Source of the DNA: a bacterium ADurb.Bin212
Lineage (GTDB): Bacteria > Patescibacteriota > UBA1384 > XYA2-FULL-43-10
Direction: 5' to 3'
Assembly: GCA_002070055.1 (NCBI GenBank)
Contig: MWCM01000001.1
Location: forward strand, 16,308 to 80,307
Length of the DNA stretch: 64,000 nucleotides
The translations under genes and the position numbers were made by a program. Below the pieces are notes generated by a model. It saw nothing but the letters and a program-made list of their open reading frames with translations. It ran no database searches and was not told the DNA's origin. Shown here one piece after another: positions 7,106 to 61,782 of this stretch (the first letter of the stretch is position 1; each line of letters opens with the position of its first letter).

Positions 7106-7564
7106 AATTTTCAATTTAAAATTTAAAATAAATGATAAAAACAAAAAATGGCAAATGATAAAAACAAATATGACTTAGAAGATAGAACGGAGAAGTTTGG
7201 AGAAGATATAATTAAGCTATGCAAAAAAATAAAAATTACTATTTATACTGAGCCACTTATTAAACAGCTTATAAGGTCTGGCACAAGCGTCGGTGCAAAT
7301 TACATGGAAGCAAACGGAGCCTGTTCCAAAAAAGACTTCTGCAATAAAATATACATTTGTAAAAAAGAATCACAGGAGAGCAAACACTGGTTAAAGATGC
7401 TTATATCCGCTACATGTAATCATCACGATGAGATTAGTCAACTATTGGGCGAGGCACAGCAACTATCTATGATTTTTCATAAAATATCTTCATCAAGCAA
7501 AATTAATCATTAAGCATTTTAAATTAGAGATTTATTTTAAATTCTAAATTTTAAATTGAAAATT
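7106..7564. mobile_element. small TIR-flanked cassette carrying a four-helix-bundle gene
   Basis: Left arm 7106-7129 (aattttcaatttaaaatttaaaat) and the reverse complement of right arm 7541-7564 (aattttcaatttaaaatttagaat) match at 23 of 24 positions. The cassette exactly fills the gap between the GT4 stop and the next gene start. Confidence 0.5.
7148..7513 (+). CDS. four-helix-bundle protein (23S rRNA intervening-sequence protein family, TIGR02436-like)
   Basis: 121 aa; LIRSGTSVGANYMEA and downstream KDF...HWLKML resemble the motifs of the S23-ribosomal/four-helix-bundle family. Confidence 0.6.
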   Translation: MANDKNKYDLEDRTEKFGEDIIKLCKKIKITIYTEPLIKQLIRSGTSVGANYMEANGACSKKDFCNKIYICKKESQESKHWLKMLISATCNHHDEISQLLGEAQQLSMIFHKISSSSKINH

Positions 7565-7571
7565 ATTATTT

Positions 7572-8285
7572 ATGCTTTACGTAAATAAATTCAAAAATTC
7601 CGAACTTGTTCACTCTTCCACCCGCACACATCTTAAGGTGGAGGTTTTACGAAGTGTTCATGCCGAGAGGGTTTTGGTGCTCGCGCCTCATCCGGATGAT
7701 GACGTTTTTGGTTGTGGCGCATTGCTTCATCATCTGAGCTTAAACAAAGCTCATATTAAAAGTCTCGTTTTTTGTGGCGGATCCTTAGGCAACAATAATG
7801 GAGTCAGAGATTTGGATTTGGTTGCGACTCGCGAAAAAGAAGCTGTGAGCGCCTTGCGTGAAGTTGGCGCAGGAGAGGCAAATTTTCTGCGATACGGTGA
7901 TTTGAAGTTGGGCGAACATGATAATTTGTGGGAAAAAATTTATCACGAATTTCAAGTGTTCAAACCTGATTTGGTTTTAATGCCCGACGGAAATGATTGG
8001 AACGAAGATCATGTTGCAGTGTATAGTTCTGCTTTATTGGCTCAGCGCAAAATAAAGAAGGGAAAGCCTGCTATATGGGGATATTTTGTCTGGGGAATAA
8101 ACAGGCCTAGCTATTTATTTCCTTATAATGCGGGCACCAAAAACATTAAGATGTCGGCTATGGCCTGCCATAAAAGTCAGCTTAAAGTTAAAAGATACGA
8201 TGAAGCGATAATAGGTATGAACGAATACCTCGGCAAAGGCCTAGGCCTCGAGCATTTGGCGGAGGGATATAGGGAAATTTTCTGA
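7572..8285 (+). CDS. PIG-L/LmbE-family deacetylase
   Basis: LVLAPHPDDDVFGCGALL matches the zinc-binding HPDDE-type motif of PIG-L N-acetylglucosaminyl deacetylases. Confidence 0.7.
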   Translation: MLYVNKFKNSELVHSSTRTHLKVEVLRSVHAERVLVLAPHPDDDVFGCGALLHHLSLNKAHIKSLVFCGGSLGNNNGVRDLDLVATREKEAVSALREVGAGEANFLRYGDLKLGEHDNLWEKIYHEFQVFKPDLVLMPDGNDWNEDHVAVYSSALLAQRKIKKGKPAIWGYFVWGINRPSYLFPYNAGTKNIKMSAMACHKSQLKVKRYDEAIIGMNEYLGKGLGLEHLAEGYREIF

Positions 8286-9411: not shown

Positions 9412-10185
9412 GTGGAAACGAAAGAGCTGTTAGAAAATCTGGGCTTGGACGAGCGGGAGAGTGAGATATATCTGGCTCTGCTTGAGCTTGGGCCACAGTT
9501 ACCGCAATATATTGCGCGCAATACCGGCATTAAGCGCACGACGCTGTATGAGATATTTCCCGAAATGATCAAAAAAGGCCTGATAGTCGAAATTGCGCAA
9601 GGTAAAAGACGACTGTTCCAAGCTGTGAGCCCGGATAAGCTCTTTAATGACTACGAGAGGAAGTATAAGGAGATCAAGGCCAATATCACCGACCTGACTG
9701 CGATTTATCGGCTACAAGGCCTAAGGCCGAAAATAGAGGTATATGAGGGCTTTGACGGTATGAAAAAGTTCTATAATTATACTCTCGAGAGCAAAGAGGT
9801 GTGTAAATGTTTTGTACAACCGGCAAAATACAATCCACGCGTACTAGATTGGCTAGTTAAGGAGTACGTGCCTGCCAGAGTCAAGCGGGGAGTGCTAGTG
9901 AAGGCGATCATGCCCGATGACGATCTAAGTGAATACTATATGGGATTTAGAAAAGAGCATCTAAGAATAGGCAGAAAAGTTCCAATCTCAAAGTTCCATT
10001 TCAAAATTGAGGGTATGATCCAAGGAAATAGAGTCTATTTTGCCAATTACGAAAAGGGAGGGCCCCAGATTGGCATCATTATCGAGTCTAAACAGATTGC
10101 CGATACATTGAGTGCGCTTTGGGACTTAGCGTGGGAGGGGGCGCAAGGTTATGGCAAGAAAGACCAGCAAAATCACTCTTGTTAA
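9412..10185 (+). CDS. TrmB-family transcriptional regulator (paralog 2)
   Basis: N-terminal wHTH (SEIYLALLELGPQLPQYIARNTGIKRTTLYEIFPEMIKKGLI) and a C-terminal IIESKQIADT...LAWEG segment shared with the other paralogs; GTG start. Confidence 0.65.
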   Translation: METKELLENLGLDERESEIYLALLELGPQLPQYIARNTGIKRTTLYEIFPEMIKKGLIVEIAQGKRRLFQAVSPDKLFNDYERKYKEIKANITDLTAIYRLQGLRPKIEVYEGFDGMKKFYNYTLESKEVCKCFVQPAKYNPRVLDWLVKEYVPARVKRGVLVKAIMPDDDLSEYYMGFRKEHLRIGRKVPISKFHFKIEGMIQGNRVYFANYEKGGPQIGIIIESKQIADTLSALWDLAWEGAQGYGKKDQQNHSC

Positions 10186-12080: not shown

Positions 12081-12330
12081 AACTCTCCAAATTTACTAAT
12101 TAATGTAACGGAGCATTGTAGCATGAATATTAGTAAATGTCAAGTAGCAAATATACAAATCTACTAAATTACAATTAATAATCAATATTAATATATTGTC
12201 ATCAAAATATGGAATATATTGGCAAAAAAGCCATAAAAGCTCAAAATATCAAAATATATTTAAGCAATAAATATTGACAACATATAGTAAAGGCTATACA
12301 ATTACATTAATTAATAATTTAAAAACTTTT

Positions 12331-13086
12331 ATGGACAGCGCAGAGATACTACAAAAATTAGATCTATCTCCTTCTGAAGCCAAGACTTACTTGGCTGTAC
12401 TTGGTGCTGGAGAAGCAAGGGTTTCTGAGGTCGGCAAATTGACAGGTGTAACCAGAATGGCAGGCTACACAGCGGCTGAGGAGTTAGTGAAGAAGGGCCT
12501 GCTTTCTTACGTTGATAAGCGTGGCAAGAAACGAGTAATGGCCGAGGATCCGGCGCGACTCGAGCTGATGTTACGAGAGAAGGAGCGGAGAGTGCGGGAT
12601 GAAGCAGAATCATTAAATGCAATTATGCCAGAGCTTCAAACCCTGTTTTCATCGAGCGATATTAAACCCAATGTGAGGGTATATTCAGGGACCGAGGGGA
12701 TTAAGACTTTGGCGGAAGATATCCTGAAAACACTCAAAAAAGGTGAGAGCTATGTTGGATATGGGGCGGTGACAAAGGAATTTGAAGAGTTAAGAGAATA
12801 TTTCCACGACTTTGTGCCGAGACGAGTCAAAAAAGAGATCAGCTTTCGTGGAATTGTGCCTGGTGATATAAACGATAATACAACAGAGAAGAACAAAGCT
12901 AAAAGACGCGAATTGCGCTATGTTTCAGTTGCCGAGTTTCCATTTAAAAATGAAATAAATATTTATGGTAATAAAATTTCGATTGAATCATTTAAAGACA
13001 AGATCGGTTTGATTATCGAGTCCAAGCAAATTGCCGATACTCAGAGAATGATATTCGAGTTGGCGTGGAGGGGAGCAGGAGAATAG
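12331..13086 (+). CDS. TrmB-family transcriptional regulator (paralog 3)
   Basis: wHTH (SEAKTYLAVLGAGEARVSEVGKLTGVTR) plus a C-terminal FPFKNEINIYGNKISI...IIESKQIADTQRMIFELAW nearly identical to the paralog-1 middle segment. Start at ATG 12331; the track ORF reads through a TTGACA promoter-like region. Confidence 0.65.
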   Translation: MDSAEILQKLDLSPSEAKTYLAVLGAGEARVSEVGKLTGVTRMAGYTAAEELVKKGLLSYVDKRGKKRVMAEDPARLELMLREKERRVRDEAESLNAIMPELQTLFSSSDIKPNVRVYSGTEGIKTLAEDILKTLKKGESYVGYGAVTKEFEELREYFHDFVPRRVKKEISFRGIVPGDINDNTTEKNKAKRRELRYVSVAEFPFKNEINIYGNKISIESFKDKIGLIIESKQIADTQRMIFELAWRGAGE

Positions 13087-20185: not shown

Positions 20186-21610
20186 ATGTGCTTAACAATA
20201 CCGGGAAAAATTAAATCGATTAAAGACGGCGTGGCGACAGTCGAAAATGGTTCCAGAACCGAGCAGATTGAGCTTGGAGTAGTTTTTGATGCCAAAGTAG
20301 GGGATTGGGTGCTTTATGCCACAAATCGCGCCGTGAGACTGATAGATGAGCAGGAGGCGCGTGAGATTATTGAGCTTCTTGAAGATAATTATCAACCGGT
20401 GGATATTGCTTCTCTACCGTTGAGGTATAAAAAGATTGTTTATAAAGTGAGAAACACTGAGAAAAATCAAAATATCAATTTAAAATCAAAAAATATTATT
20501 AATAGCAATTTAACAATCCAGCAATTTAACAATATTCACAAGAGCGATCTCGAATATCTACTACAGTTGAGAGGTAAAAATAATCTTGAAGCCTTTTACA
20601 GTGAGGCTAATGTCTTGCGTAAGAACATAATTAAAGACTTCGTCTGCATACACGGCATTGTAGAATTTTCTAACTATTGCAAGAATTGCTGTCTTTATTG
20701 CGGTATAGGGAGCAAAGCTAAAATACGACGTTATCGTATGACTTCCGACGAAATATTCATGGCAGTCGAACAGGCGGTCGAATTTGATGGTTATAAATTG
20801 GTGGTTTTGCAAAGTGGAGAGGACGATTATTATAGCGATGACGAGCTCGTGTCATTGATAGATAGGATCAAAAAAGATTTAAGAGTTTTTGTCTTCATTT
20901 CGGTGGGAGAGCGGTCTAAAAACTTTTATAAAAGAGCATTCGAAGCGGGGGCAAGCGGCTCACTTTTTCGTTTTGAAACCTCGAATCCGGAGTTATATAG
21001 CCGAATGCATCCGAATCATGATTTACAAAGCAGACTCGAATCTATACAAATGCAAATCGAGATTGGATATTATTTGGCAAGTGGTGGTTTAATCGGCTTA
21101 CCAGGTCAGACTATCTCTGATATGGCAGATGATCTTTTGTTGGTGAAGAAACTTCGGATTCCAATGTTGTCGAGTGGACCCTGGATTCCAAGTTTGACTA
21201 GCCCGCTTGGAATAATAACCAATAACCAAGGCACAAGAAACAAACAAATTCCAAACGGTGTCATTGCGAGGGACGAAGCAATCTTTAACAATTTAGCAAT
21301 AAAACAATTTAGCAATAATGAAAAATTGCGTCTGACTCTTAACTATATCGCGGCGGCGCGCTTTTTAATGCCGGAGATCAAAATTCCTGTGACTACAGCT
21401 TTGGAAACATTAGACCAAGAGAGCGGACGACACAAAGCCTTGTTGGCCGGTGCCAACGCCTTAATGTTTAATATTACTCCGGAAAAATACCGAGGCGATT
21501 ATAATTTATACGATCATAAATATATAGAACGGGAGAAAGTTTGGCAAAAATACGGGCTCTTTAAAGGAGAGGAGAGTTACGAGATGCTAGAAGATAGGTT
21601 AAAGATCTAA
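20186..21610 (+). CDS. HypC/HupF-like N-terminal domain fused to a BioB/HydE/PylB-type radical SAM domain
   Basis: N-terminus MCLTIPGKIKSIKDGVATV...VGDWVL matches the HypC MCLxIP signature. Downstream, NYCKNCCLYCGIG is a CxxxCxxC motif in the C(K/R)NNCxYCG style of BioB/HydE/PylB, and GGLIGLPGQT is a family-like glycine motif. Contains two in-frame repeat-derived inserts (20506-20533; 21224-21318). Confidence 0.55.
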   Translation: MCLTIPGKIKSIKDGVATVENGSRTEQIELGVVFDAKVGDWVLYATNRAVRLIDEQEAREIIELLEDNYQPVDIASLPLRYKKIVYKVRNTEKNQNINLKSKNIINSNLTIQQFNNIHKSDLEYLLQLRGKNNLEAFYSEANVLRKNIIKDFVCIHGIVEFSNYCKNCCLYCGIGSKAKIRRYRMTSDEIFMAVEQAVEFDGYKLVVLQSGEDDYYSDDELVSLIDRIKKDLRVFVFISVGERSKNFYKRAFEAGASGSLFRFETSNPELYSRMHPNHDLQSRLESIQMQIEIGYYLASGGLIGLPGQTISDMADDLLLVKKLRIPMLSSGPWIPSLTSPLGIITNNQGTRNKQIPNGVIARDEAIFNNLAIKQFSNNEKLRLTLNYIAAARFLMPEIKIPVTTALETLDQESGRHKALLAGANALMFNITPEKYRGDYNLYDHKYIEREKVWQKYGLFKGEESYEMLEDRLKI

Positions 21611-21616
21611 ATACGG

Positions 21617-21645
21617 CAAACCCGCCGCGTTCAGCGGCGGGTTTG
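21617..21645. terminator. bidirectional terminator hairpin
   Basis: caaaCCCGCCGCgttcagGCGGCGGGtttg. The stop codon of the minus-strand GC-rich ORF lies in the loop. Confidence 0.65.
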
Positions 21646-22395
21646 TGCTCTTGTGTCTGCTCTCACAACCTCCACCCTTACTTCGCCTACTTTGGCCAGC
21701 GAGTAGGGTAGGGGCGTTACCAGTGTCACGGGCGGCTTTAGGCCCAGCGCGTGACTTGTTAGGTCAAAGCGCTTTACGGACTCGCAGCCCTGCATGTGGC
21801 GCTGAAGAGCTCGGCGTGAGCAGGTTGCCAACTCCTCTTTAAGGTCGAATGACCCTTTTCGTGTCCAGAGGTAGTCGGCAATCTCGGCCAACTCGGTACC
21901 CTTGGGTGGGATGAGGCGTAGCTCCAGCCTGCAGTGCAGGAAGGCTGAACCTCTGGCGATACTACAGCGCAGAGGCAGACTTAACCTAGACGGTAGGCGA
22001 TAGACCTTGCCATAACCCAAGCCCTCCATGATCTGTGCAACCTGCGGGTCCAGGCTGTGGCTTGTGGTTCCACCCGTGTACTCTACTGTGGCGTAGCTTT
22101 CTCTTGCGGTCTGCACCACAATGAAGCGCTTGACCCCGGCGTCACGCAGGGCCAGGTGCTGGCTGCGTCTGGCTACTTCGGCGATCATACCGCCGAGGCT
22201 GGAAACAACTCGCCATAACAGCCAGAATGCGACAACGCCAAACCCCACTCTCTGCCATGTTGCAATCGCCAGCAGTGCCGTGAAGACACCGAAGACGATA
22301 TTATTGCACAGGGTAATAAACCTCACGACGCCCGCAGCCGTCTTGAGGTGATTGAAGGCAGAAACCCTCAGTTCGTCCAAACCGTGATTCTCCAA
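21631..22395 (-). CDS. hypothetical two-TM membrane protein with an Arg-rich cytoplasmic domain (GC-rich island)
   Basis: Start reassigned to TTG 22395, 8 nt after an AAAGGAGG RBS and downstream of a TTTACA-17-TATATT promoter-like sequence. The track ORF extends into AT-rich upstream DNA. Two TM helices, then a roughly 170-aa domain with no motif I recognise. About 60 % GC. Confidence 0.4.
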   Translation of the reverse strand: MENHGLDELRVSAFNHLKTAAGVVRFITLCNNIVFGVFTALLAIATWQRVGFGVVAFWLLWRVVSSLGGMIAEVARRSQHLALRDAGVKRFIVVQTARESYATVEYTGGTTSHSLDPQVAQIMEGLGYGKVYRLPSRLSLPLRCSIARGSAFLHCRLELRLIPPKGTELAEIADYLWTRKGSFDLKEELATCSRRALQRHMQGCESVKRFDLTSHALGLKPPVTLVTPLPYSLAKVGEVRVEVVRADTRAQTRR

Positions 22396-22482
22396 GGCTT
22401 TCGCCTCCTTTGCAGTATTGATCGGACGTATGAATATAACATAAAAGATACAACTTGTAAATAGTCTGATGCTCAATTGCAC

Positions 22483-22521
22483 ACAGCAAAACTCCCGCAA
22501 TAGAATTTTGCGGGAGTTTTG
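22483..22521. terminator. perfect 13-bp hairpin (AAAACTCCCGCAA/TTGCGGGAGTTTT), bidirectional terminator
   Basis: Sits between the methyltransferase stop (22546) and the island gene's promoter region. Confidence 0.6.
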
Positions 22522-22545
22522 AAAATAGTCATTAGTGAACTCTTG

Positions 22546-25376: not shown

Positions 25377-26126
25377 ATGAAATATTACCAGATTTTTGAG
25401 AAATTTGGACTGGCAAAAAATGAAGCAATTATATACGAAACTCTGCTTAATGAGGGGGAGAGCAATGTGGCGAATATTTCTGTTAAGTCAAAAATACATC
25501 GCAGAAATGTTTACGATTCTTTAAATCGGCTCATTGAGAAAGGTCTAGTGTTCGAGATATTACAGAGCAGAGAAAACATATATAAAGCGGTGGATCCGGA
25601 TAAATTTTCGCAGATGTTGGCGGAAAAACAGAAAGAGTTAGATAAAATTATGCCCCAGCTTAAAAATATTTATCAAAATAAGCCTCATGCTCAGGAGGTT
25701 TATATTTACAAAGGCTTAGAGGGATACAAAAATTACATGAGAGACATTTTGCGACTAGGCCAAGACGATTATATTTTAGGGGGCAAAGGCCTTTGGGCGG
25801 ATCCTAAAATAATCAGTTACACCGAGCAGTTCATGAAAGAAGCTAAAAAGCTTGGCATCAAATTTCATATCATTTATGATGAAGAGGTAAAAAAATCTAA
25901 GCATAAAATTGCCTCTTTTATTGGCGGCAGCTATCGTTTTTTACCGGAGAAATACTTTACCAACTGTTCCATGGAGATATTTGCCGATAGGGTCGTGATT
26001 CTTTCTGATATAGGCAGACACGGCGAGATGGATGAGAATTCTGTCCACACGGTAATTATTAATCGACAGGTAGCGGATGCCATGAGAACTTGGTGGAAGG
26101 CACTGTGGGGCATTGCAAAAGAATAA
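25377..26126 (+). CDS. TrmB-family transcriptional regulator (paralog 4)
   Basis: wHTH (NEAIIYETLLNEGESNVANISVKSKIHRRNVYDSLNRLIEKGLV) and the same overall architecture as the other three paralogs. Confidence 0.6.
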   Translation: MKYYQIFEKFGLAKNEAIIYETLLNEGESNVANISVKSKIHRRNVYDSLNRLIEKGLVFEILQSRENIYKAVDPDKFSQMLAEKQKELDKIMPQLKNIYQNKPHAQEVYIYKGLEGYKNYMRDILRLGQDDYILGGKGLWADPKIISYTEQFMKEAKKLGIKFHIIYDEEVKKSKHKIASFIGGSYRFLPEKYFTNCSMEIFADRVVILSDIGRHGEMDENSVHTVIINRQVADAMRTWWKALWGIAKE

Positions 26127-35269: not shown

Positions 35270-37879
35270 TTAATTCTTGGTTGCTCTCCAAACTTCTTCC
35301 ATGCTGGTGATGCCCTCAGAGGCTTTGATAATTCCATCTTGAATCATGGTAACCATACCTTGGCTGATGGCCAGATTGTTAAGCTCGTCGGATGAAACTC
35401 GTTTCAAAATTTGCTGTTGCATCTCCGGTGTTACATCCAACACCTCATATATGCCTAATCTGCCTTTGTAGCCGGAGTTATCACAACTTTTACATCCTTT
35501 GCCCTTGTAGAATTTCAACTCCTGGCTCTGAATCTGATTTTTCTCTGCCGATGGCATTTTATCAATCTCTTTGTTGATCTCGGCAATCTCTTCATCCGGC
35601 AATTGAATCTCCTCTTTGCAATCCTGGCACAGGGTTCTAACTAAACGTTGGCCCACAACCACGTTGATAGAGGAGGTTATAAGGAAGGGTTCGACTCCCA
35701 TGTCGATCATTCTAGGGGCGGCCCCAGCCGCGTCGTTGGTGTGCAGGGTGGACAAAACCACATGCCCCGTTAATGCCGCGTGAACGGCCATCTCAGCGGT
35801 TTCTCTGTCTCTTATTTCTCCTAGCATTATAATGTCTGGATCTTGTCTTAAAATGGATCTTAGACCGGCTGCAAAGGTGTAGCCGATTTCAGAATTAACT
35901 TGGCTTTGGTTAATACCTTTCATCTGATATTCAATCGGATCTTCCAGCGTGATAATATTTACACCTTCGGTATAAACCTTTTGGATCATGGCGTATAGAG
36001 AGGTGCTTTTGCCACTGCCCGTTGGACCTGTTACCAAAACCATGCCGTGGCTTTTAGTCAAGTTTGCCTCAAGCGCCTTCAGGCCGCTACCTCTTATTCC
36101 AAGCTGCTCTATGGTTAAAATGCCACTATCTTTGTCCAAAATTCTCATTACAATCTTTTCGCCAAATGCAACCGGCATGCTTGAAACGCGGAAATCAACA
36201 CGGCGACTATCGACGTGCATGTTGAATCTGCCATCTTGAGGTACTCTTTGCTCATCAATTTTCATGTTGCACAAAATCTTGATTCGGGATATAACAGCTG
36301 CTTGAATCTCCTTAGGCAAAGAAACCTTTTTTCTTAAAACACCGTCTAGACGGAAACGGACTTCAACTTCTTTCTCTGTTGGTTCAATATGAACATCTGA
36401 AGCCTTGTCTCTTATGGCTCTTTTCAAAAGCGATGAAACAATTTTGGCGGCCGGAGCGTCATCGCTGACCGTCTCGACAATCTGTTTGGACTCATTATTT
36501 TCTTCGCTCTTTTCATCCTCCTCTTCGGCAGTGGCTATTGCGCTTGACACCTCGCTCTCCAGATCTTGGTATTGGCTTAGAACAGAGTTAATATCTGATT
36601 CTGTTGCTAAAAAGAGCTTAATCTTCTCGCCTAATAATCTTTTAATCATCTCTCTTGTTTCGACATCTTCAGGATCCACCATGGCGATGCTAATAACGCC
36701 ATCATTCTCTTCAAAGGCTACAGATTTATACGATCTGGCGATATTTTCCGGAATTTTAGAGAGTAATTCTTTCGGCACAATAAAATTATTAAGATCTTTA
36801 TATTCGATTTTGGTTTTGTCGAAATTAAAAGAGCCTTCAGCACCTGAGAATATTGAGGCATGTTGTTCGTTGGGAGTAGGGGGAAGTGAATCCTGGTTTA
36901 CCTCCGTATTTGCGCCTAATGTATCTTGGTTGGGTTGTCCCAGCTCCTCTTTGATATTGTTAATCTTCTCTTCAGCGTTCTGACTAGCTTCTACAGGAAC
37001 GATATTAACCGGCGTTGCTTCTGCTTTAGCGGAGTTTTTGTCAAAGATACCGAATTCTGCCATATTTACTGGAGTTTTGACTTCTTCATTAGAAGCAGGC
37101 TGGTTACTGTTTTCTGGAGCAGCGTCATCCTTAATTTGATCGCCAATTTCCTGATTTTTTTTGCCAAATCCCAGTTTATTCTTAAGAAGGCTCAGGGCAC
37201 TTTGACCTTGACTTTGTTGGTCAGTTGGTTGAGTTTCCTTGTTTTCTTGCTCTGGTTGATGGTTGTGGGCTTTGATACTGCCTTTAACAGTCGAAAACTC
37301 CCTGCTACCATCGCTTAAAATCTCCTCAAAAATGTTAACAGGCTTTTGCCTGCTTTCTGATGTTTGCGAGTGATATTTTTCTATGTCATCTTCGTGGTGT
37401 TTGCTTGGCTTGTTTTCTGATTCTTGACTGTTCGATGGGTGATCAATATTGATGACCTCAATTTCGTCTGCAGGTTTGTTAAATCCCTCTGATATATCGT
37501 TTTCAGTTTTTTTCTTGCTGTTATTAACGTTTATTTTAATCTCCTCTGAAAAGGATTCTTCCGCAGCTTTCTCCTCAAGGTCGTTCTGGTCGCTAATCTC
37601 TTCTCTTCCAGAAACCGCCCTTTTCAAATTGCTGGCGGGCATCCACTTTATTACTCTAGTAGGTAACATAATGAGTTTTTTGCCGTTCTTGGGGTGATTT
37701 ATTGTTTTGGACGGATATTCGATATCATAAAAAGAACCAAAATTTGAATAAACAACTTTTTGGCCGTTGCAAAGTGCCTCTTTAACCACAGCCCCAAAAG
37801 CGATAATGAGGTTCTCTGACTGTCTTTTTGACAGAGAAGTTTTTTTGGCTATGGCCTTAGCTAGATCGCTACGATTCAT
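35270..37879 (-). CDS. pilB: fusion: HU/IHF-like DNA-binding domain, acidic low-complexity linker, then PilB/GspE extension ATPase
   Basis: N-terminal roughly 90 aa, MNRSDLAKAIAKKTSLSKRQSENLIIAFGAVVKEALCNGQKVVYSNFGSFY...NGKKLIMLPTRVIKW, aligns with the bacterial HU fold. About 350 aa of Glu/Ser/Asn-rich linker follow, then a GspE_N domain, Walker A VLVTGPTGSGKST, and a CQDC...CKSC zinc motif. Start at ATG 37879 after a GGAGGGG RBS; the track start is an upstream TTG. Confidence 0.7.
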   Translation of the reverse strand: MNRSDLAKAIAKKTSLSKRQSENLIIAFGAVVKEALCNGQKVVYSNFGSFYDIEYPSKTINHPKNGKKLIMLPTRVIKWMPASNLKRAVSGREEISDQNDLEEKAAEESFSEEIKINVNNSKKKTENDISEGFNKPADEIEVINIDHPSNSQESENKPSKHHEDDIEKYHSQTSESRQKPVNIFEEILSDGSREFSTVKGSIKAHNHQPEQENKETQPTDQQSQGQSALSLLKNKLGFGKKNQEIGDQIKDDAAPENSNQPASNEEVKTPVNMAEFGIFDKNSAKAEATPVNIVPVEASQNAEEKINNIKEELGQPNQDTLGANTEVNQDSLPPTPNEQHASIFSGAEGSFNFDKTKIEYKDLNNFIVPKELLSKIPENIARSYKSVAFEENDGVISIAMVDPEDVETREMIKRLLGEKIKLFLATESDINSVLSQYQDLESEVSSAIATAEEEDEKSEENNESKQIVETVSDDAPAAKIVSSLLKRAIRDKASDVHIEPTEKEVEVRFRLDGVLRKKVSLPKEIQAAVISRIKILCNMKIDEQRVPQDGRFNMHVDSRRVDFRVSSMPVAFGEKIVMRILDKDSGILTIEQLGIRGSGLKALEANLTKSHGMVLVTGPTGSGKSTSLYAMIQKVYTEGVNIITLEDPIEYQMKGINQSQVNSEIGYTFAAGLRSILRQDPDIIMLGEIRDRETAEMAVHAALTGHVVLSTLHTNDAAGAAPRMIDMGVEPFLITSSINVVVGQRLVRTLCQDCKEEIQLPDEEIAEINKEIDKMPSAEKNQIQSQELKFYKGKGCKSCDNSGYKGRLGIYEVLDVTPEMQQQILKRVSSDELNNLAISQGMVTMIQDGIIKASEGITSMEEVWRATKN

Positions 37880-38276
37880 GCCCCTCCGTAATGAGTTAAC
37901 AAGATGTCTGGAAATGAAAAATCCCCTCCAAAAACAGTATAACAACCGCTCTTGGACAAAGCAATATTTATATGGAAAACAGACGATTTTGACTTACCGT
38001 TTAGTTGGACTCGCGCTTAAATTGTCGCTTGCTCTTAATAATATTAGTTAAATATTTTTCCTTGCTAAATTTGTCACTTAAAAAATTATTATGTTCACAT
38101 CTCTTGGGACAAACTGGGGATAAATTCGGGCTATTTCTTGATTAAAATATAGCTATTAGCTTTTGGAGCAACAAAATATACATCTCGACACGAGTTATGT
38201 GCGGCGATGGTAAGTAGAGGATATAATAAGATTGATTTGAAGCGCAACAATATTGAGATTTTTATTTTGATTTTCT

Positions 38277-40066: not shown

Positions 40067-41491
40067 ATGCCCAAAGAACAAGCAAAAAATTTTAAAAAAG
40101 ATGGCAAGCGCAAAGTATCTCTACCTGCCGGTGTTCGGATTCCGCCGCAAAACCTGGATGCTGAGAGGAGTATTCTTGGCGCCTCTCTTCTTGATAAAAA
40201 TGCCTTAATCAAAATTATTGATATTGTTACCGCACAAGATTTTTACGACGAGAATCACGGCTTAATATTTGAGGCAATGCTGACTTTATTCGAGAAGCGT
40301 CGCCCGATTGATATTGTAACCTTAACCGAGCAATTGGAGTCCGAAAAGATTTTAGACCAAGTTGGCGGCGCAAGCTATTTAACAGATTTAGTAAATGGCA
40401 CTCCCAGTGCGGCTAATGTTGTTCATTATGCCAAAATTGTTTCAGATAAGGCGGTTCTTCGGAGATTGATCGAAGCATCATCTAATATCTCCGAGCTTGG
40501 TTTCGACGAAGACGCCGAAATATCTGAAACGCTGGACAAAGCAGAACAATCCCTATTTGCCGTTTCACAAAAATTTATGAAAGATAAATTTGTGGCGGTT
40601 AAAGATATCTTAACCGAGGCATTCGATAGAATCGACAAAATACACAAAGATAAAGATAAGGGCGCGCTTCGTGGTGTACCCTCCGGTTTTAGAGATTTAG
40701 ATGCAATAACGGCGGGTTTTCAAAAATCAGATTTAATTATTCTGGCGGCACGTCCCTCAATGGGTAAAACTTCTATTGTCCTGAATATTGCCGAACATAT
40801 TGCCATAGAAGAAAAGATCCCGGTGGGTATTTTTTCCTTAGAGATGAGTAAAGAGCAGTTGGTGGACCGTCTATTATCTTCTCAGGCGGGGGTAGATTCG
40901 TGGAAATTGCGCACCGGTAATCTTTCTGATGAAGACTTCCCACGCATCGGTTACGCTATGGGTGTGCTCTCTGAAGCTCCGATGTATTTTGATGATACAC
41001 CTGGTCAAAATGTAATGGAGATTCGCGCCAAGGCTCGCCGCTTACAAATGGAACATGGTCTCGGTTTGATAATTATCGACTATCTTCAATTGATGGAGGG
41101 CAGGTCCAAGGGTGGCGACCCGAACCGTGTGCAGGAGATATCCGAGATCTCCCGTTCGCTTAAAGGCTTGGCTCGTGAACTTAATGTGCCGGTTATCGCT
41201 CTGTCACAGCTTTCTCGTGCCGTAGAGCATCGTCCCGATAAGCGCCCTCAGTTATCCGACCTACGTGAATCTGGCTCAATAGAACAAGATGCTGATGTAG
41301 TAATGTTTCTTTATCGCGACGAATATTACGATCCGGAAACGGACAAGAAAGGCATTACCGAGATTTTAATTAAAAAACACAGAAACGGTCCTACCGGTTT
41401 TGTGGAGGTTTATTTTCAACCGGAGCAGATGCGCTTCCGCGATCTGGAGAAAAGACGCGATGGAAGCTCGCCTCCGCCCGACGATTTCTAA
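40067..41491 (+). CDS. dnaB: replicative DNA helicase DnaB
   Basis: LPPQNLDAERSILG (N-terminal domain), Walker A AARPSMGKTS, IIIDYLQLM, and the H4 motif SQLSRAVE. Confidence 0.9.
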   Translation: MPKEQAKNFKKDGKRKVSLPAGVRIPPQNLDAERSILGASLLDKNALIKIIDIVTAQDFYDENHGLIFEAMLTLFEKRRPIDIVTLTEQLESEKILDQVGGASYLTDLVNGTPSAANVVHYAKIVSDKAVLRRLIEASSNISELGFDEDAEISETLDKAEQSLFAVSQKFMKDKFVAVKDILTEAFDRIDKIHKDKDKGALRGVPSGFRDLDAITAGFQKSDLIILAARPSMGKTSIVLNIAEHIAIEEKIPVGIFSLEMSKEQLVDRLLSSQAGVDSWKLRTGNLSDEDFPRIGYAMGVLSEAPMYFDDTPGQNVMEIRAKARRLQMEHGLGLIIIDYLQLMEGRSKGGDPNRVQEISEISRSLKGLARELNVPVIALSQLSRAVEHRPDKRPQLSDLRESGSIEQDADVVMFLYRDEYYDPETDKKGITEILIKKHRNGPTGFVEVYFQPEQMRFRDLEKRRDGSSPPPDDF

Positions 41492-43495: not shown

Positions 43496-43803
43496 GAGAT
43501 TTCAATTTGGAATAGATATTATATCAAAGCAAAAAATGGTTCTTTGTATGCCATGACAACCTGTTATTATGGCTAAAATAGTGTATAGAAAATATCTATA
43601 AAAAGTTGGATATATTATGTCTGGTATTTGATAAAGTTTTTGTTAGATTATTATTATCCCACAATATGTCTTGACAAATACCCGGTATAGCAGTACAATG
43701 TTATAATCACTAAAAAAGTGATGGCACACAAAAAATCAAATACAATATTAGGTCTGGAGGGGCCAATAATAACAAGCTACTAGCTATTAGTTACTAGCTG
43801 TTA

Positions 43804-43838
43804 GAAAAAAAGCTTCTCCACACAGAGAAGCTTTTTTT
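43804..43838. terminator. bidirectional terminator hairpin (AAGCTTCTC..GAGAAGCTT flanked by A7 and T7)
   Basis: Perfect 9-bp stem with A and T tracts. Confidence 0.55.
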
Positions 43839-44411
43839 GCATGAGTGAGATGGGGCCAAGAGGCGGCCGCTCCCACCGCTTCTTACAGGAAGACAAAATA
43901 CTAATCGAAAAAATAAGTGATTATAAATTGTCTTCCTCCCAGCTCGTTCCTGCAAAAAAAATACTTAAGAGAAAACTTAAGAAAAAATATCAGTAAATAA
44001 AAAAAACAGTAAAAACAAACAAACTGAAAAAGAAAAAACTGATAAAAACACAGAAAATCAAAGAAATCGAAGAAAAAACCAGAAAAACAAGAAAAAAGCA
44101 CATTAAAAACAAAAAAAGCAGGAAACAAAACAAAAACGAGGGATATAAGTCAAAATATCTTTTGTTACCAAAATGGTAATAAGGGATACCACAAACGACT
44201 TAAAACGCCATTTATGGTACCCCTCATGGGTGTAATTTACGTCACCGGGCAATAATTTAAAATATATTTGTTCCCGATAAGCTGACAAATAAATTGCACC
44301 CAATCAAAAGAGTTCATCTTAGAGATGAGCTTTTTTGTTATATTTGCGGGACCATAAATATGTGATAATATGAAAAGTAAGATAAATCATACTAATATTA
44401 AGGAGTTCATA

Positions 44412-52669: not shown

Positions 52670-53794
52670 ATGAATAAACTTGTTTTAATAGACGGTAATG
52701 CTATCATTCACAGGGCCTACCACAGCATGCCAAAAACACTAAGCACACGCAAAGGAGAGCAGACAAATGCCATCTATGGCTTTGCCATCACTCTAATAAA
52801 GGTGCTTGAAGATTTAAAGCCGCAATATTTAGCGGCGACTTTTGATTTGGCTGGGCCGACTTTTCGCCATGAGGTTTTTGAGGAGTATAAGGCCACCAGG
52901 GTAAAGGCCGATCAGGAGCTTTATGATCAAATTCCTCGCGTAAAGCAGTTGGTGGAGACAATGGGCATACCGATATATGAGAAAGATGGTTTCGAAGCGG
53001 ATGATGTGATTGGAACGATTGTGGAAATAATTCAAAAATCAAAAATCAAAAATCAAAAGTACAATTCAAAAGTAAAAAATAAAAAATTTATTTCAAGTGA
53101 AACGAAGGAGCCTAATACTTTAGCAATAGAACAATTTAACAATTTAACAATATATATAGTAAGTGGGGACAAAGACATTTTTCAACTCATAAACGGCAAT
53201 GTCAAAGTGTATAATCTTAAAAAAGGATTGAGTCAGACGCAAATTGTTGATACTGAGGTAATCCAAAATGAATATAATTTACAGCCATCAGATTTTATCG
53301 ATTTGAAGGCTTTGGCGGGTGACCCAAGTGATAATATCCCAGGGGTGCCTGGGATTGGACCAAAGACAGCTACAGAATTGATACAAAGATTTGATACTTT
53401 GGAAAAGATTTATGAGAATATCACTAAATTGCTCAATTGCCCAATTGCTGATTTAAACAATTTAACAATACAACAATTTAACAATGAAACGATCGAAGTG
53501 GTTGCCAAGGAGCTTGGCCTTAAGCCTAGGGTTGTGAAACTGTTGATTGACAATAAGGAGCAAGCCTTTCTTTCTCAGCATCTTGCTACAATTCACAAAG
53601 ATGTTCCAATTGATTTTGATCTGGATAAGTGCAAGTGGGGAATGTATGATAAAAGTAAATTGAGCCAGTTGTTTGAAGAATTGGGCTTTCAATCACTCCT
53701 TCGAAGATTTGCCAACAACGCAACGGAAGAACAAAAAAAACAAGAGCAAAGAAGCGAGGCGCAAAAAAAAGATGAGCAATTAAAACTACTATGA
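52670..53794 (+). CDS. polA: DNA polymerase I, 5'-3' exonuclease (FEN-like) part
   Basis: LVLIDGNAIIHRAYHS...GFEADDVIGT...SGDKDIFQL...PGVPGIGPKTA are the 53EXO motifs. Ends at TGA 53792-53794, 1 nt before the ATG of the polymerase ORF, in a different frame. Carries about 35 aa of repeat-derived insert (53040-53151). Confidence 0.8.
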   Translation: MNKLVLIDGNAIIHRAYHSMPKTLSTRKGEQTNAIYGFAITLIKVLEDLKPQYLAATFDLAGPTFRHEVFEEYKATRVKADQELYDQIPRVKQLVETMGIPIYEKDGFEADDVIGTIVEIIQKSKIKNQKYNSKVKNKKFISSETKEPNTLAIEQFNNLTIYIVSGDKDIFQLINGNVKVYNLKKGLSQTQIVDTEVIQNEYNLQPSDFIDLKALAGDPSDNIPGVPGIGPKTATELIQRFDTLEKIYENITKLLNCPIADLNNLTIQQFNNETIEVVAKELGLKPRVVKLLIDNKEQAFLSQHLATIHKDVPIDFDLDKCKWGMYDKSKLSQLFEELGFQSLLRRFANNATEEQKKQEQRSEAQKKDEQLKLL

Positions 53795-53795
53795 T

Positions 53796-55136
53796 ATGTG
53801 GAGCCATCTAAAAGGTAAATCAATAATTGTACCGCAGATCAGCTCGGATGAGATTTCAAAACAGCTTGAGCCGGTTTTGCGTGAAATGGAAAAGGTAGGG
53901 ATTAGGCTGGATGTTCATGAATTCTCTAAGCTGGAGAAAAAGCTAACTGCTGATAGCTTAAATCTGAAAGCTCATGTCCTTGAACTTGCCGGAGAGGACT
54001 TCAATATTGATTCACCTTCACAAATGGCCGCAGTTTTATTTGATAAACTAAAACTTCCTACTGAAGGGTTAAAACGTACCAAAAGCGGGCCATCCACGGC
54101 GGCGAGTGAACTTAATAAAATCAAAGATAAGCATTCAATAATCGCGCCAATCCTTGAATACCGCGAGCTAGCAAAATTGCTATCAACATATCTAACTACC
54201 CTGCCTAAAATGGTGGATAAAAATTCACGACTTCACACTCACTATGCTCAGGATGTAGCTACTGGCCGTATTTCGTCCAATGACCCGAATCTGCAAAATA
54301 TTCCCATAAAAGGCCGATATGGAGAGGAGATCCGTAGATCTTTTGTGGCCTCGCCTGGCAATGTGCTAATCTCTGCCGATTATTCTCAAATAGAGCTACG
54401 TATTGTGGCTTGTTTGGCAGAGGACAAGGAGATGATTAAATCATTTAACTCTGGTCGTGATATCCACAGTGAAACTGCGGCTGACATATTCAAAAAAGAT
54501 TCTTCGCAGGTGACGAGTGACGAGCGTCGATTTGCCAAAACCATCAATTTTGGCGTTCTTTACGGTATGAGCCCATACGGCCTGTCACAAGCATTAAATA
54601 TCGGAGTTGATTCGGCTGCAGAATATATTAGACGATATAACGAGGTTTACTCTGGTATAAGCGCTTATTGCAAGAGAATGATTACTGAGGCGAAAGAAAA
54701 AGGCTATGTGGAGACTCTTTTTGGCTATCGCCGAGTTTTACCCAATATCAACTCCAACAATCGCTACTTAGCTGAGGCCGAAGAGCGCATGGCAATAAAT
54801 ACACCGGTGCAGGGGACTGCAGCGGAGATTTTAAAGCTCTCGATGCTGGATCTAGATCGAGAGTTCAATAACCAAGGTACAAGAAACAAGATACAAACAA
54901 ATTCAAAAATAAATATTCAAAATTCCAAAAAACTATCACCTAACATCTATAACCTAAAACCTGTAAAAGCTCAGCTTTTACTCACTGTCCACGATGAGCT
55001 GGTGGTGGAAGCGCCGGAGGCGGAGGCTGGGGAAGTAGCTAAGGTAGTCAAAGTAACAATGGAAAATGTTATCAAACTATGTGTGCCAATTGAGGTAGAG
55101 GTTGGAATTGGAAAAAACTGGGCTGAGTCAAAATAA
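53796..55136 (+). CDS. polA: DNA polymerase I, polymerase (family A) domain part; no 3'-5' exonuclease domain
   Basis: Family-A motifs RRSFVASPGNVLISADYSQIELRI (motif A), RRFAKTINFGVLYG (motif B) and LLLTVHDELVVE (motif C). Carries a roughly 30-aa in-frame repeat insert (54868-54960). Confidence 0.85.
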   Translation: MWSHLKGKSIIVPQISSDEISKQLEPVLREMEKVGIRLDVHEFSKLEKKLTADSLNLKAHVLELAGEDFNIDSPSQMAAVLFDKLKLPTEGLKRTKSGPSTAASELNKIKDKHSIIAPILEYRELAKLLSTYLTTLPKMVDKNSRLHTHYAQDVATGRISSNDPNLQNIPIKGRYGEEIRRSFVASPGNVLISADYSQIELRIVACLAEDKEMIKSFNSGRDIHSETAADIFKKDSSQVTSDERRFAKTINFGVLYGMSPYGLSQALNIGVDSAAEYIRRYNEVYSGISAYCKRMITEAKEKGYVETLFGYRRVLPNINSNNRYLAEAEERMAINTPVQGTAAEILKLSMLDLDREFNNQGTRNKIQTNSKINIQNSKKLSPNIYNLKPVKAQLLLTVHDELVVEAPEAEAGEVAKVVKVTMENVIKLCVPIEVEVGIGKNWAESK

Positions 55137-61440: not shown

Positions 61441-61461
61441 AATTTTTTCAAAAAAATTACA

Positions 61462-61592
61462 ATAAACAAGAAACAAGATACAAACAAATTCCAAATGTCA
61501 ATTTTCAAGAGTTCAAAAGTAGTGTTATTTGTAATCTGATTGTTGAGTATTGAATATTGTTTGATTATTGTTTCTTGTGTCTTGTTTATTTA
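61462..61592. mobile_element. MITE-like palindromic repeat element (about 130 bp) with imperfect terminal inverted repeats
   Basis: Left arm aataaacaagaaacaagatacaaacaa (61462-61488) versus the reverse complement of the right arm aataaacaagacacaagaaacaa (61570-61592). Partial copies sit inside coding regions at 21224-21262 and 54868-54905. Confidence 0.55.
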
Positions 61593-61782
61593 TTTAAAAT
61601 TGACAGTTTGCAAGTGAGGCCAGGCAAGAAAACGTAATTTTGAGAACACCACCACAGAACCTGCTCGCAGATTAAAACTGATCTGTGAAAATCAGTGAAG
61701 AAAATCTGTGGAAGTGCGCTCACTATTATTACTTCTTGCTTTGCCTTAGAACTCTAAATGCAAATTTGTCAGAAAGGAAAGC

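Follow-up and report, generated by a model that had tools for sequence, protein, structure and literature searches.

Short arrays of an 8-nt DNA repeat, held open in frame, at insertion sites of the split PolA and HypC::radical-SAM genes of bacterium ADurb.Bin212

Genes and repeat arrays at the locus

The stretch of DNA analysed here (the window) comprises 64,000 nt of the genome of bacterium ADurb.Bin212 (assembly GCA_002070055.1, contig MWCM01000001.1, positions 16,308 to 80,307), and its subject is a short A-rich repeat that lies in frame within the gene for the 5'-3' exonuclease half of a split DNA polymerase I (PolA) and within a second gene in which HypC is fused to a radical SAM protein. 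The nuclease open reading frame (ORF) is 100% identical to 'DNA polymerase I [bacterium ADurb.Bin212]', the radical SAM protein likewise matches an ADurb.Bin212 entry at 100%, the nearest other relative of the nuclease is 69-74% identical, and the closest relatives of both the nuclease and the radical SAM protein are annotated as Candidatus Berkelbacteria or Patescibacteria. The two genes, the adjoining polymerase gene and the repeats within them, as delimited in part by Tandem Repeats Finder (TRF), are as follows.

52670 to 53794, + strand: ORF of the FEN-type 5'-3' exonuclease that forms the N-terminal half of a split PolA (PF02739, PF01367; 374 aa)
53032 to 53087, + strand: left part of nuclease site 1, heptamer array TCAAAAA / AAAAATC (TRF period 7, 8.1 copies, 82% matches), reading KSKIKNQKYNSKVKNKK
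53124 to 53151, + strand: right end of site 1, CAATAGAA-CAATTTAA-CAATTTAA-CAAT(ATAT), reading AIEQFNNLTIY
53428 to 53451, + strand: left arm of the palindrome at nuclease site 2, ATTGCTCA-ATTGCCCA-ATTGCTGA, consisting of reverse-complement CAAT units and reading (K)LLNCPIAD
53458 to 53485, + strand: right arm of the same palindrome, CAATTTAA-CAATACAA-CAATTTAA-CAAT, reading NNLTIQQFNN
53796 to 55136, + strand: separate family-A polymerase ORF, next to the nuclease ORF
54867 to 54962, + strand: insert at the single hotspot of the polymerase domain, AATAACCAAGGTACAAGAAACAAGATACAAACAAATTC..., reading NNQGTRNKIQTNSKINIQNSKKLSPNIYNLKP
20186 to 21610, + strand: HypC::radical-SAM (HydE-like maturase) ORF (PF01455, PF04055; 474 aa), carrying sites A and B
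20462 to 20533, + strand: site A, in the linker between HypC and the radical SAM domain; a AAAAATCA-type array (20462-20494), then the 8-nt array CAATTTAA-CAATCCAG-CAATTTAA-CAAT (20506-20533), the whole site reading KNQNINLKSKNIINSNLTIQQFNN
21214 to 21316, + strand: site B, a composite of three modules, reading NNQGTRNKQIPNGVIARDEAIFNNLAIKQFSNN
21214 to 21257: site B module 1, AATAACC/ACAAGAAACAA..CAAATTCCAAAC array
21260 to 21283: site B module 2, GC hairpin half GTCATTGCGAGGGACGAAGCAATC
21289 to 21316: site B module 3, 8-nt array CAATTTAG-CAATAAAA-CAATTTAG-CAAT

The repeating unit

The exact motif CAATTTAACAAT is present six times in the window as against 0.03 occurrences expected from dinucleotide-preserving shuffles, and all six copies (starting at 20506, 20522, 53132, 53140, 53458 and 53474) are on the + strand and within the nuclease or HypC::radical-SAM ORFs. 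An earlier sequence-only reading of this DNA had located and translated these repeats correctly, and the motif is far in excess of chance. When either A or G is accepted at position 8 (CAATTTARCAAT), there are 9 copies where 0.07 are expected, the additional ones being at 21289, 21305 and, on the minus strand, 40036. The periodic pattern CAATN4CAATN4CAAT was likewise found 9 times as against 0.02 expected by shuffling, and no shuffle attained this number. If two mismatches are allowed, then only a weak excess remains (29 matches, 18 expected), and thus the signal resides in exact periodic arrays. According to TRF the repeating unit is one of 8 nt, viz. CAATTTAA or CAATTTAG, and not of 12-13 nt as was first supposed, and it forms arrays of 3.5-4.2 copies at 20506-20533, 21284-21316, 53119-53151, 53427-53449 and 53451-53485. 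The caatttaacaat motif is the visible portion of short arrays of this 8-nt simple-sequence unit, and the window's own four 8-nt arrays are all coding. The aaaaatc x3 tract that was noted beside them is contained in the period-7 array at site 1.

Reading phases of the unit

As 8 is not divisible by 3, three consecutive units (24 nt, 8 codons) traverse all three codon phases. If a unit is read in the first phase (a), the codons are CAA-TTT-AAC-AAT and the peptide is QFNN; if it is read in the second phase (b), AAT-TTA-ACA-AT. gives NLTI; and in the third phase (c), ATT-TAA brings in a stop codon. In the codon view of the window arrays, the units occupying the stop phase are non-consensus in five of five cases, with one to three substitutions each (CAATCCAG, CAATACAA, CAATAAAA, CAATAGAA and CAATATAT, the last two being the non-consensus units of the site-1 array), and of the 11 units falling in phases a and b, 8 match CAATTTAA or CAATTTAG exactly, each of the three exceptions being the last unit of its array. 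The antisense arm of site 2 behaves likewise, having AT-TGC-CCA or AT-TGC-TCA in place of AT-TGY-TAA. The departures from the DNA consensus in the stop phase are precisely those which abolish the stop, and since every stop-phase unit is mutated in this way, the sequence NNLTIQQFNN is a passive read-out of the DNA. The peptide NNL[TA]I[QKE]QF[NS]NN results from the passive translation of a DNA repeat in which patching has kept the frame open, and the frame common to the inserts is the sole way in which an 8-nt array can be read through, rather than the mark of a peptide motif. What had been described as a 'QQFNN module' is this three-phase reading of an 8-nt DNA unit. The heptamer array is similarly read over three phases, AAA-AAT-CAA-AAA-TCA-AAA-ATC giving KNQKSKI. 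One example of a peptide spanning the inserts, as predicted from the frame, is LLNCPIADLNNLTIQQFNNETIEVVAK. The N-glycosylation sequons (N-L-T and N-E-T) which appear in these peptides were also considered and dismissed, as they are presumably a by-product of AAT-TTA-ACA in a cytoplasmic enzyme.

The two insertion sites of the nuclease

Site 1 lies between the conserved segments GTIV.K and IYIVSGDKD, its 8-nt array adjoining the conserved strand IYIVSGDKD, and site 2 lies between LEKLY..I and IKPRI. We aligned 28 orthologues of the nuclease and inspected 120 (55-74% identical, 310-428 aa), and essentially all of the large length variation among the 120 is confined to these two sites, the shortest orthologues having no insert. 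Against the structure of M. smegmatis Pol1 (6vde), residues 120-157 of the query replace 5 residues and residues 253-285 replace 3. An AlphaFold model built on the alignment (mean per-residue confidence, pLDDT, of 84.8) has a core above 90; site 1, with ten-residue block means of 60 and 49, is modelled as disordered, and site 2 is modelled as short helices with pLDDT of 71-92.

The second insert, which at first was described as a simple tandem repeat, is over its whole length (53428-53485) an inverted array pair of the form (ATTGnnnn)3-loop-(nnnnCAAT)4. Its left arm matches the CAAT array on the minus strand at 53428-53447, and the TRF period-8 consensus of this arm is AATTGCTC. Of the four sites in the nuclease and radical SAM genes, site 2 alone is palindromic overall, sites 1, A and B having no such dyad symmetry, and the inserts vary in length and content. 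The sense-strand RNA of site 2 folds with -6.1 kcal/mol (z = -0.45), which is no better than shuffled sequence, and an mRNA hairpin on this strand was rejected on that account. The antisense strand folds with -18.6 kcal/mol (z = -3.2 relative to shuffled sequence), because the C.A mismatches of the sense strand turn into G.U pairs.

If the site-2 insert had arisen recently and only in the ADurb.Bin212 genome, then it should be lacking in the related species. However, the same palindromic insert is present at this position in orthologues that are only 61-64% identical (P0006, P0008, P0014 and about ten more), the KLLNC...NNLTIQQFNN palindrome being found in about 15 of the 120. One example is the orthologue L001, in which site 2 reads ATTGCTAA-ATTGCTAA-ATTGCTCA-cttaa-CAATTTGA-CAATGCAA-CAATTTAA-CAAT, and orthologues bear ATTGCTAA x3 at the position of the left arm. 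As the insert is common to orthologues of about 62% identity, there has been no recent expansion private to the ADurb.Bin212 genome. The sequence-only reading had proposed active in-frame expansion in this genome, unless the motif were no more frequent than base composition predicts or such inserts were also found in distant homologues; the site-2 palindrome is found in such homologues, the arrays are short (3-4 units) and interrupted, and the one other ADurb.Bin212 assembly (GCA_022705445.1) is identical over 5,125 bases, without length polymorphism. Its claim of a repeat family contributing in-frame peptides to unrelated proteins stood, and that of active expansion in this genome did not.

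The bearers of the palindrome are scattered on a neighbour-joining tree, where their sisters often have another module or none. The repeat read-outs seen in other orthologues are KSKIKNQ, QETRNKIQTNSK, ISKSEFLISNQ...FIENWKLKIENY, VIASEAKQS...SLAMT, CHPE... and SERSEESQ...PQDD. Peptides of the KSKIKNQ type recur at both sites among the orthologues, and modules of the NLTI/QFNN type recur at site 1 in P0029, P0039, P0058, P0081 and P0099.

Conservation of the insert at the DNA level

In a comparison of the window with L001, L003 and L004, nucleotide identity is 76-84% within the site-2 insert as against 62-67% elsewhere. Of the alignment columns with identical residues in these four lineages, those that also have identical codons number 7 of 12 within the insert and 18 of 169 outside it; with stratification by amino acid, 1.4 such columns would be expected within the insert, and 7 was attained in none of 20,000 resamplings (P < 5e-5). 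In L125 and L126, residues in site 2 have changed (e.g. F to S, T to A), with CAAT retained at 8-nt spacing. As the insert is conserved at the DNA level, it would either have been re-introduced or homogenised from DNA copies, or be under a constraint at the level of the nucleic acid.

Modules in the radical SAM, polymerase and other genes

In the HydE-like radical SAM family there are two hotspots, corresponding to sites A and B, and relatives of 44% identity are without either insert ('QTSKS' and 'PNG'). Where radical SAM relatives lack the inserts, site A reads 'FKVRSGN' and site B 'PNG'. The possibility that the HypC::radical-SAM fusion was made by read-through of an intergenic repeat was rejected, since the fusion is conserved throughout the family, repeat-free relatives included, and the repeat thus did not create it. 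Downstream of this gene, positions 21611-22545 (about 930 nt) hold only a 289-aa minus-strand ORF with a TTG start, no Pfam match and odd composition, for which Rfam gives sub-threshold matches only (Thr_leader, 34 bits as against a gathering score of 55).

The modules of site B are arranged in the order ACAAGAAACAA..CAAATTCCAAAC, then GGTGTCATTGCGAGGGACGAAGCAATC, then (TTTAGCAA)n, and the same three modules in the same order are found at nuclease site 2 of L125 (P0073), where they read IEETRNKIQETNKTQIPNPMGVIASEAKQSSNLAIQQSNNE. The polymerase insert (54867-54962) contains the left module of site B as well, and so does an intergenic palindrome. The latter, and the single copy of the 8-nt motif that lies outside the arrays, are located as follows.

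61445 to 61599: intergenic palindrome upstream of PNPase, with 57-nt arms (72% complementary) and a 41-nt loop, the arm carrying ACAAGAAACAAGATACAAACAAATTCCAAA
40036 to 40047, - strand: solitary CAATTTAGCAAT in the intergenic leader upstream of dnaB (40067-41491)

At the polymerase hotspot, L127 carries (AAAAATC)4, reading QKSKIKNQKK, and L128 carries KFLISNDESNVKFQ. Two further genes of the window have arrays in frame, viz. GltX, where (TCAAAAA)n at 4447-4481 links the catalytic and anticodon-binding domains, and a GT4 glycosyltransferase, where (CAAAATGCAAAAAG)2.4 at 6527-6568 lies between its two Rossmann halves; a Roizmanbacteria GT4 (L112) has QFNNLTIQQF at this same interdomain linker. 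The claim that one A-rich family contributes in-frame peptides to unrelated proteins holds for the nuclease, the radical SAM protein, the polymerase, GltX and GT4 in the window and for TrmD, PrmC, GT2 and GT4 elsewhere, and alignments, structure, models and the codon view agree in placing the insertions in frame in unrelated ORFs at positions which the fold tolerates.

Turnover of modules between strains

The contigs P0003 (L128) and P0004 (L129) have about 98% DNA identity across the nuclease gene except at its two insertion sites. The first of these differs completely over about 130 nt, a few of the flanking conserved codons included, and the version in P0004 resembles the alleles of P0007 and P0021; the difference looks like a recombination patch. 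The site-2 difference is a GC-rich double hairpin of 42 nt, GCAAAACTTGCCACCGCCTCCGGCGGGGTCCCGCAAAATGCGG, which one of the two strains has, nested in the AT-rich palindrome, and the other lacks; at this indel, the one examined, no target-site duplication is evident. Chimeric contigs or not, there must be coexisting strains whose flanks are nearly identical and whose modules differ. In L129 (Logan contig DRR381268_13004, about 4960-5570) the last 540 nt or more are 100% identical to about 54590-55136 of the window, and the preceding part of the gene is 65-85% identical. However, this should not be interpreted as showing that the polymerase insert has spread horizontally to L129, as the identity covers at least 540 nt of the gene at the contig end; probably the assembly is chimeric, or the window organism is present in that sample, and conclusions drawn from this contig call for caution. 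The turnover visible in these sequences, i.e. hotspots, module swaps and the 42-nt indel, is one at the level of the clade, no expansion having been seen within this genome.

The array family in other genomes

When one genome per species was scanned for CAATTTARCAATTTARCAAT, at least 120 stretches were found, where a rough chance expectation would be from about 4 (50% GC) to about 76 (if every genome had 35% GC). The figures in this section on taxa, and on the 184 arrays that have at least three CAAT at 8-nt spacing, hold among the matches listed, which extend well past the seed. Bacteroidota contribute at least about 54 of them (among these, isolates of Draconibacterium mangrovi, Chryseobacterium defluvii and Pedobacter anseongensis), Patescibacteria at least about 33 and metagenome-assembled genomes (MAGs) labelled Gammaproteobacteria at least about 15, and the remainder include Ca. 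Hatepunaea, Ignavibacteria and Symploca. Four or more units are present in 129 of the 184 arrays, the longest having 13, and 173 of the 184 (94%) lie outside ORFs of at least 100 aa. An array in ATTG phase is found within 150 nt upstream of the CAAT array in 58 of the 184 cases and the opposite order in none. Among solitary arrays, those in 5' leaders are, on the mRNA strand, CAAT in 34 and ATTG in 9 cases, and those near gene ends are ATTG in 42 and CAAT in 17. The units drift along the arrays; 272 are CAATTTAA and 116 are CAATTTAG, and after these come CAATATAA, CAATGTAA, CAATTCAA and others. In-frame arrays were seen elsewhere in TrmD (an inverted pair), PrmC, GT2 and the interdomain linker of GT4, their hosts being mostly MAGs of the candidate phyla radiation (CPR).

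The GC hairpin was followed in metagenomes by a scan for CAAATTCCAAA-N(1-12)-GTCATTGCGAG, which gave 30 stretches, mostly non-coding. In the typical stretch, (AAATTCC)n heptamers come first and the GC hairpin, with its inverted partner (GAGATTGC...CTCGCAATGAC), comes after them, and one copy is in frame within a C-terminal sorting domain of the type IX secretion system. IMG/VR has 34 stretches with arrays, including giant-virus MAGs.

Two further forms of the arrays were observed. On the 10.8-kb viral contig IMGVR_UViG_3300002307_002689 (L162), about 12 copies of TAAATTGC are present at the start and about 12 TTTAGCAA-type units about 30 nt from the terminus at the other end, inverted relative to the start array; these could be terminal repeats, or the contig could be a circle broken within an array hairpin. 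In Peribacteria MAGs (L024, L039, L041, L069, L095, L106, L109 and L111), inverted 8-nt arrays surround a conserved loop of about 30 nt, ..GCAAGCGAAACGCACGT.., which suggests a lineage-specific, multi-copy hairpin element built on 8-nt arrays.

Comparison with known repeat systems

The Rickettsia palindromic elements (RPEs) are selfish DNA resembling MITEs (miniature transposable elements with inverted repeats) and sit in frame within genes that code for proteins (Ogata et al. 2000, reviewed in PMC10969869). By analogy they are functionally the closest system, as in both cases short repeats with dyad symmetry are found in frame in unrelated housekeeping genes, where they add a peptide segment at positions tolerated by the fold, and also in non-coding DNA. 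However, the arrays do not belong to the RPEs by size, consensus or taxon, nor is a relationship in sequence to be expected: an RPE is described as measuring about 100-150 bp, each family having its consensus, and RPEs as restricted to Rickettsia, whereas here modules of 20-70 nt, made of 7-8-nt units and small hairpins, are freely combined, occur across phyla and turn over at hotspots. Other MITEs (ERIC, BOX, QMITE1 and the Anabaena MITEs; PMC10969869) are similarly small and non-autonomous, have inverted arms and are sometimes coding, but target-site duplications (at the one indel examined), defined terminal inverted repeats and a parent insertion sequence (IS; among the 47 window ORFs scanned) were not found here. 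Inverted array pairs are common (58 of 184), and their arms are low-complexity arrays of variable length.

Direct repeats of the heptamer TAACTGA are known from intergenic regions of Beggiatoaceae, Cyanobacteria and Bacteroidetes (MacGregor 2015, PMC4679880), and the same paper cites Mrazek et al. (2007) for long simple-sequence repeats with units of 5-11 nt, a range of non-triplet units within which the period-8 and period-7 arrays of the window fall, their CAAT triplets being above chance. The TAACTGA repeats too are non-triplet tandem arrays that are distributed patchily across phyla and lie, for the most part, directly upstream of start codons in fixed orientation, and stop codons of the unit restrict their placement in ORFs, the peptide period being equal to the unit length (LSVISYQ there, QFNNLTIx here). 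An intergenic, oriented location near starts characterises the present family at large (among the matches listed), but not the arrays of the window. The differences are that the 8-nt unit CAATTTAA/CAATTTAG is another sequence, that the arrays are often inverted pairs, that the coding copies lie inside catalytic-domain loops of essential enzymes, away from protein termini, and recur at orthologous hotspots, and that the stop-phase unit is specifically mutated.

PARCEL repeats (PMC2996958) share with these arrays coding repeats with DNA dyad symmetry and a punctate phylogenetic distribution; they were rejected as a match, as PARCEL is a 25-residue domain in variable surface proteins and not an 8-residue read-out of an 8-nt unit. 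Further, the arrays are not contingency loci, in which unit changes in a long and homogeneous tract turn a gene on or off, typically one for a surface protein or for restriction-modification; they have 3-4 units, every third degenerate, in essential replication and maturation enzymes. Rfam 15 has no match for 12 loci rich in arrays or hairpins, the scan of the window giving two tRNAs only at the gathering score. No description of the 8-mer array or of the GTCATTGCGAG hairpin was found in the searchable literature, whose coverage is incomplete, so that the result is an absence of evidence only; full-text matches to 12-16-mers and to GTCATTGCGAG were unrelated primers only, and nothing specific was found by keyword on inserts in CPR or Patescibacteria. 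The Asn/Lys-rich inserts of Plasmodium falciparum are likewise A-rich, low-complexity and lineage-specific and lie in loops of conserved enzymes of an A+T-rich genome, but they are mostly homopolymeric or triplet-based and are not known to be accompanied by an intergenic family of palindromic arrays.

Other features of the window

A 121-aa ORF at 7148-7513 matches the '23S rRNA-intervening sequence protein' family (PF05635, E = 2.4e-15) and is flanked by 42-nt inverted arms of AAATTTA heptamers (7098-7139 and 7531-7572, 81% complementary). It sits between GT4 and PIG-L genes, outside rRNA, and the region 7098-7572 looks like a small cassette that is mobile or similar to an intervening sequence. 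At 43500-44370 about 870 nt without a convincing ORF are extremely A-rich, with overlapping tandem arrays of periods 9-16 at 43958-44096. An unusual fusion of 891 aa (35270-37945, minus strand) joins an N-terminal HU-type DNA-binding domain (PF00216) to MshEN and to an ATPase of the T2SSE/PilB type; its gene belongs to a type IV pilus cluster, PilM, PilN, PilO and PilC being encoded nearby. Four paralogues with an N-terminal TrmB-type helix-turn-helix are present in the 64 kb (553-1737, 9412-10185, 12274-13086 and 25377-26126), one of them fused to NUDIX.

Proposed explanation and alternatives

The observed periodicity, phase logic, palindrome, hotspots, DNA-level conservation, intergenic majority, recurrence of the composite and strain swaps are, in our assessment, likely to be due to arrays from a mainly intergenic pool that have been written in frame into permissive loops, patched and exchanged. 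The source would be a pool of simple-sequence arrays and hairpins that is mainly intergenic and occurs widely among Bacteroidota and Patescibacteria, and in it the 8-nt arrays join (AAAAATC)n heptamers, ACAAGAAACAAG..CAAATTCCAAA arrays and the half GC hairpin (GTCATTGCGAG..GCAATC). If a module enters or grows in coding DNA, then it would be kept only where the fold accommodates the added residues, and selection would let it survive only if it is in frame and its stop-phase unit is mutated, the resulting inserts being about 20-45 aa long and located where housekeeping enzymes have permissive loops or linkers. The native codons that border the loops resemble the cores of the arrays and could act as seeds for slippage or for copying by microhomology, putative examples being ATT-GCN, which encodes the 'IA' residues ahead of site 2, and CAA-ATC-TAT, which precedes IYIV at site 1. 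Afterwards, alleles would exchange modules by homologous recombination and whole modules would be gained or lost as indels, and a few loops in the Berkelbacteria-like clade would in this manner be hotspots of module gain, loss and exchange. The inserts would be largely neutral for enzyme function, and their spread would have involved slippage together with recombination or copy-paste among dispersed copies.

A recent and ongoing slipped-strand expansion in situ, which would be actively lengthening proteins in this genome, would account for the fact that the arrays are true tandem repeats by TRF; slippage is moreover the classical route of growth, proposed for heptamers by Mrazek et al. (2007) as summarised in PMC4679880, and the drift of units along long intergenic arrays elsewhere is what local duplication and mutation predict. 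However, the site-2 insert is shared with the distant orthologues, slippage is disfavoured in arrays of just 3-4 units of which each third is degenerate, a single gain or loss of 8 nt would shift the frame of an essential gene, the two available assemblies show no polymorphism, and slippage is unable to yield a three-module composite with the same order in unrelated genes; we consider such an expansion unlikely. The composite, which is common to unrelated genes and genomes, would be accommodated by a discrete non-autonomous element, MITE- or RPE-like, mobilised by a dedicated transposase of IS200/IS605 or RAYT type encoded elsewhere. Such an element would also fit the inverted arms with their fixed polarity (58 ATTG..CAAT pairs and none reversed), the dispersal of copies over many phyla, viruses and metagenomes, the clean 42-nt hairpin indel between near-identical strains, and the in-frame insertion that is a hallmark of RPEs (PMC10969869). 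This possibility deserves some weight but is doubtful, as the one indel examined has no target-site duplication, lengths and combinations of modules vary freely without a full-length consensus, no transposase was found in the 64-kb window, A-rich leaders and T-rich trailers on transcribed strands can also account for the polarity, and the turnover between P0003 and P0004 at site 1, with its flanking conserved codons, resembles a homologous recombination patch.

It is also conceivable that (K)LLNC..NNLTIQQFNN is a selected protein module, serving as an interaction or regulatory loop, with the regularity of the DNA being secondary. Its retention at site 2 in about 15 of 120 orthologues and the short helices modelled there agree with this, but elsewhere the great majority of these DNA units are non-coding, the three phases of the unit account exactly for the peptide, conservation at synonymous sites goes beyond the peptide's needs, the CAAT core outlasts residue changes in L125 and L126, sister orthologues have unrelated modules or none, and site 1 is modelled as disordered, all of which makes a selected peptide very unlikely. 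The excess conservation of DNA over coding need would instead be expected if the arrays were kept for a role of the nucleic acid, be it as a signal for recombination, as a hairpin of the mRNA or of the antisense strand, or as the site of a protein binding 8-nt repeats, the RNA forms (CAAUUUAA)n and (ATTGTTAA)n being candidate ligands. The significant antisense fold of site 2 and the orientation of solitary leader arrays relative to start codons (34 to 9) are in keeping with such a role, and TAACTGA repeats have likewise been proposed to bind S1, Csp or CsrA-type proteins (PMC4679880). However, there is no known partner and no Rfam family match, the sense-strand fold is not significant, and the hotspots carry unrelated modules in close relatives, so that no particular sequence is needed there; we regard this role as improbable. 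Lastly, a chance or compositional artefact of an A+T-rich genome, to which the small excess at two mismatches might point, has a negligible probability in view of the exact and periodic counts (6 as against 0.03, and 9 as against 0.02, never attained by shuffles) and of the same arrays in independent assemblies of orthologues.

Several points weigh against the preferred explanation, viz. the writing of arrays from a mainly intergenic pool into permissive loops. Translation of the inserts is deduced from the open frames. A role of the site-2 insert at the protein level is possible, given the fair confidence of its modelled helices and its retention in about 15 of 120 orthologues. The patchy distribution rests on a neighbour-joining tree that is unbootstrapped and has long terminal branches, and one ancient insertion followed by many losses or replacements could also have produced it. 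The codon comparison comprises 12 columns from four lineages that are not independent. Metagenome contigs can be chimeras of strains, L129 being a mosaic downstream. The array statistics come from matches listed for one genome per species, and their coding and intergenic classes from crude ORF calls (ATG start, at least 100 aa). As for the mechanism of spread, no target-site duplication or defined ends were found at the one indel examined and no transposase, RAYT or integrase family match among the 47 window ORFs scanned with Pfam.

Significance of the arrays

A wider interpretation, which is rather doubtful, is that CAAT arrays, heptamers and GTCATTGCGAG-type GC hairpins form one modular, cross-phylum system of 'protein-colonising' DNA, with a fixed polarity from ATTG to CAAT and a copy-paste process specific for sequence or hairpin, for which an enzyme, templated synthesis or directed gene conversion would be candidate mechanisms. 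If this were true, then such DNA would continuously remodel permissive loops of essential CPR proteins, a phenomenon like that of the RPEs would reach far beyond Rickettsia, and the constraint at the DNA level would imply a dedicated partner. The 8-nt array family, present in Bacteroidota, Patescibacteria, viruses and others, has apparently not been described before, and it may mark an unrecognised regulatory or mobile system. For the CPR, whose proteins carry many lineage-specific inserts, the arrays give a sequence-level account of how such inserts originate, in which non-triplet arrays and hairpins have entered surface loops with one stop patched, and they pinpoint orthologous positions at which close strains swap modules. 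Recurrent 'hypothetical' peptides such as QFNNLTI, KSKIKNQ, VIASEAKQS and KLKIEN are read-outs of DNA repeats, and inserts of this kind make proteins longer and mislead the alignment, domain calling and phylogeny of CPR marker genes.

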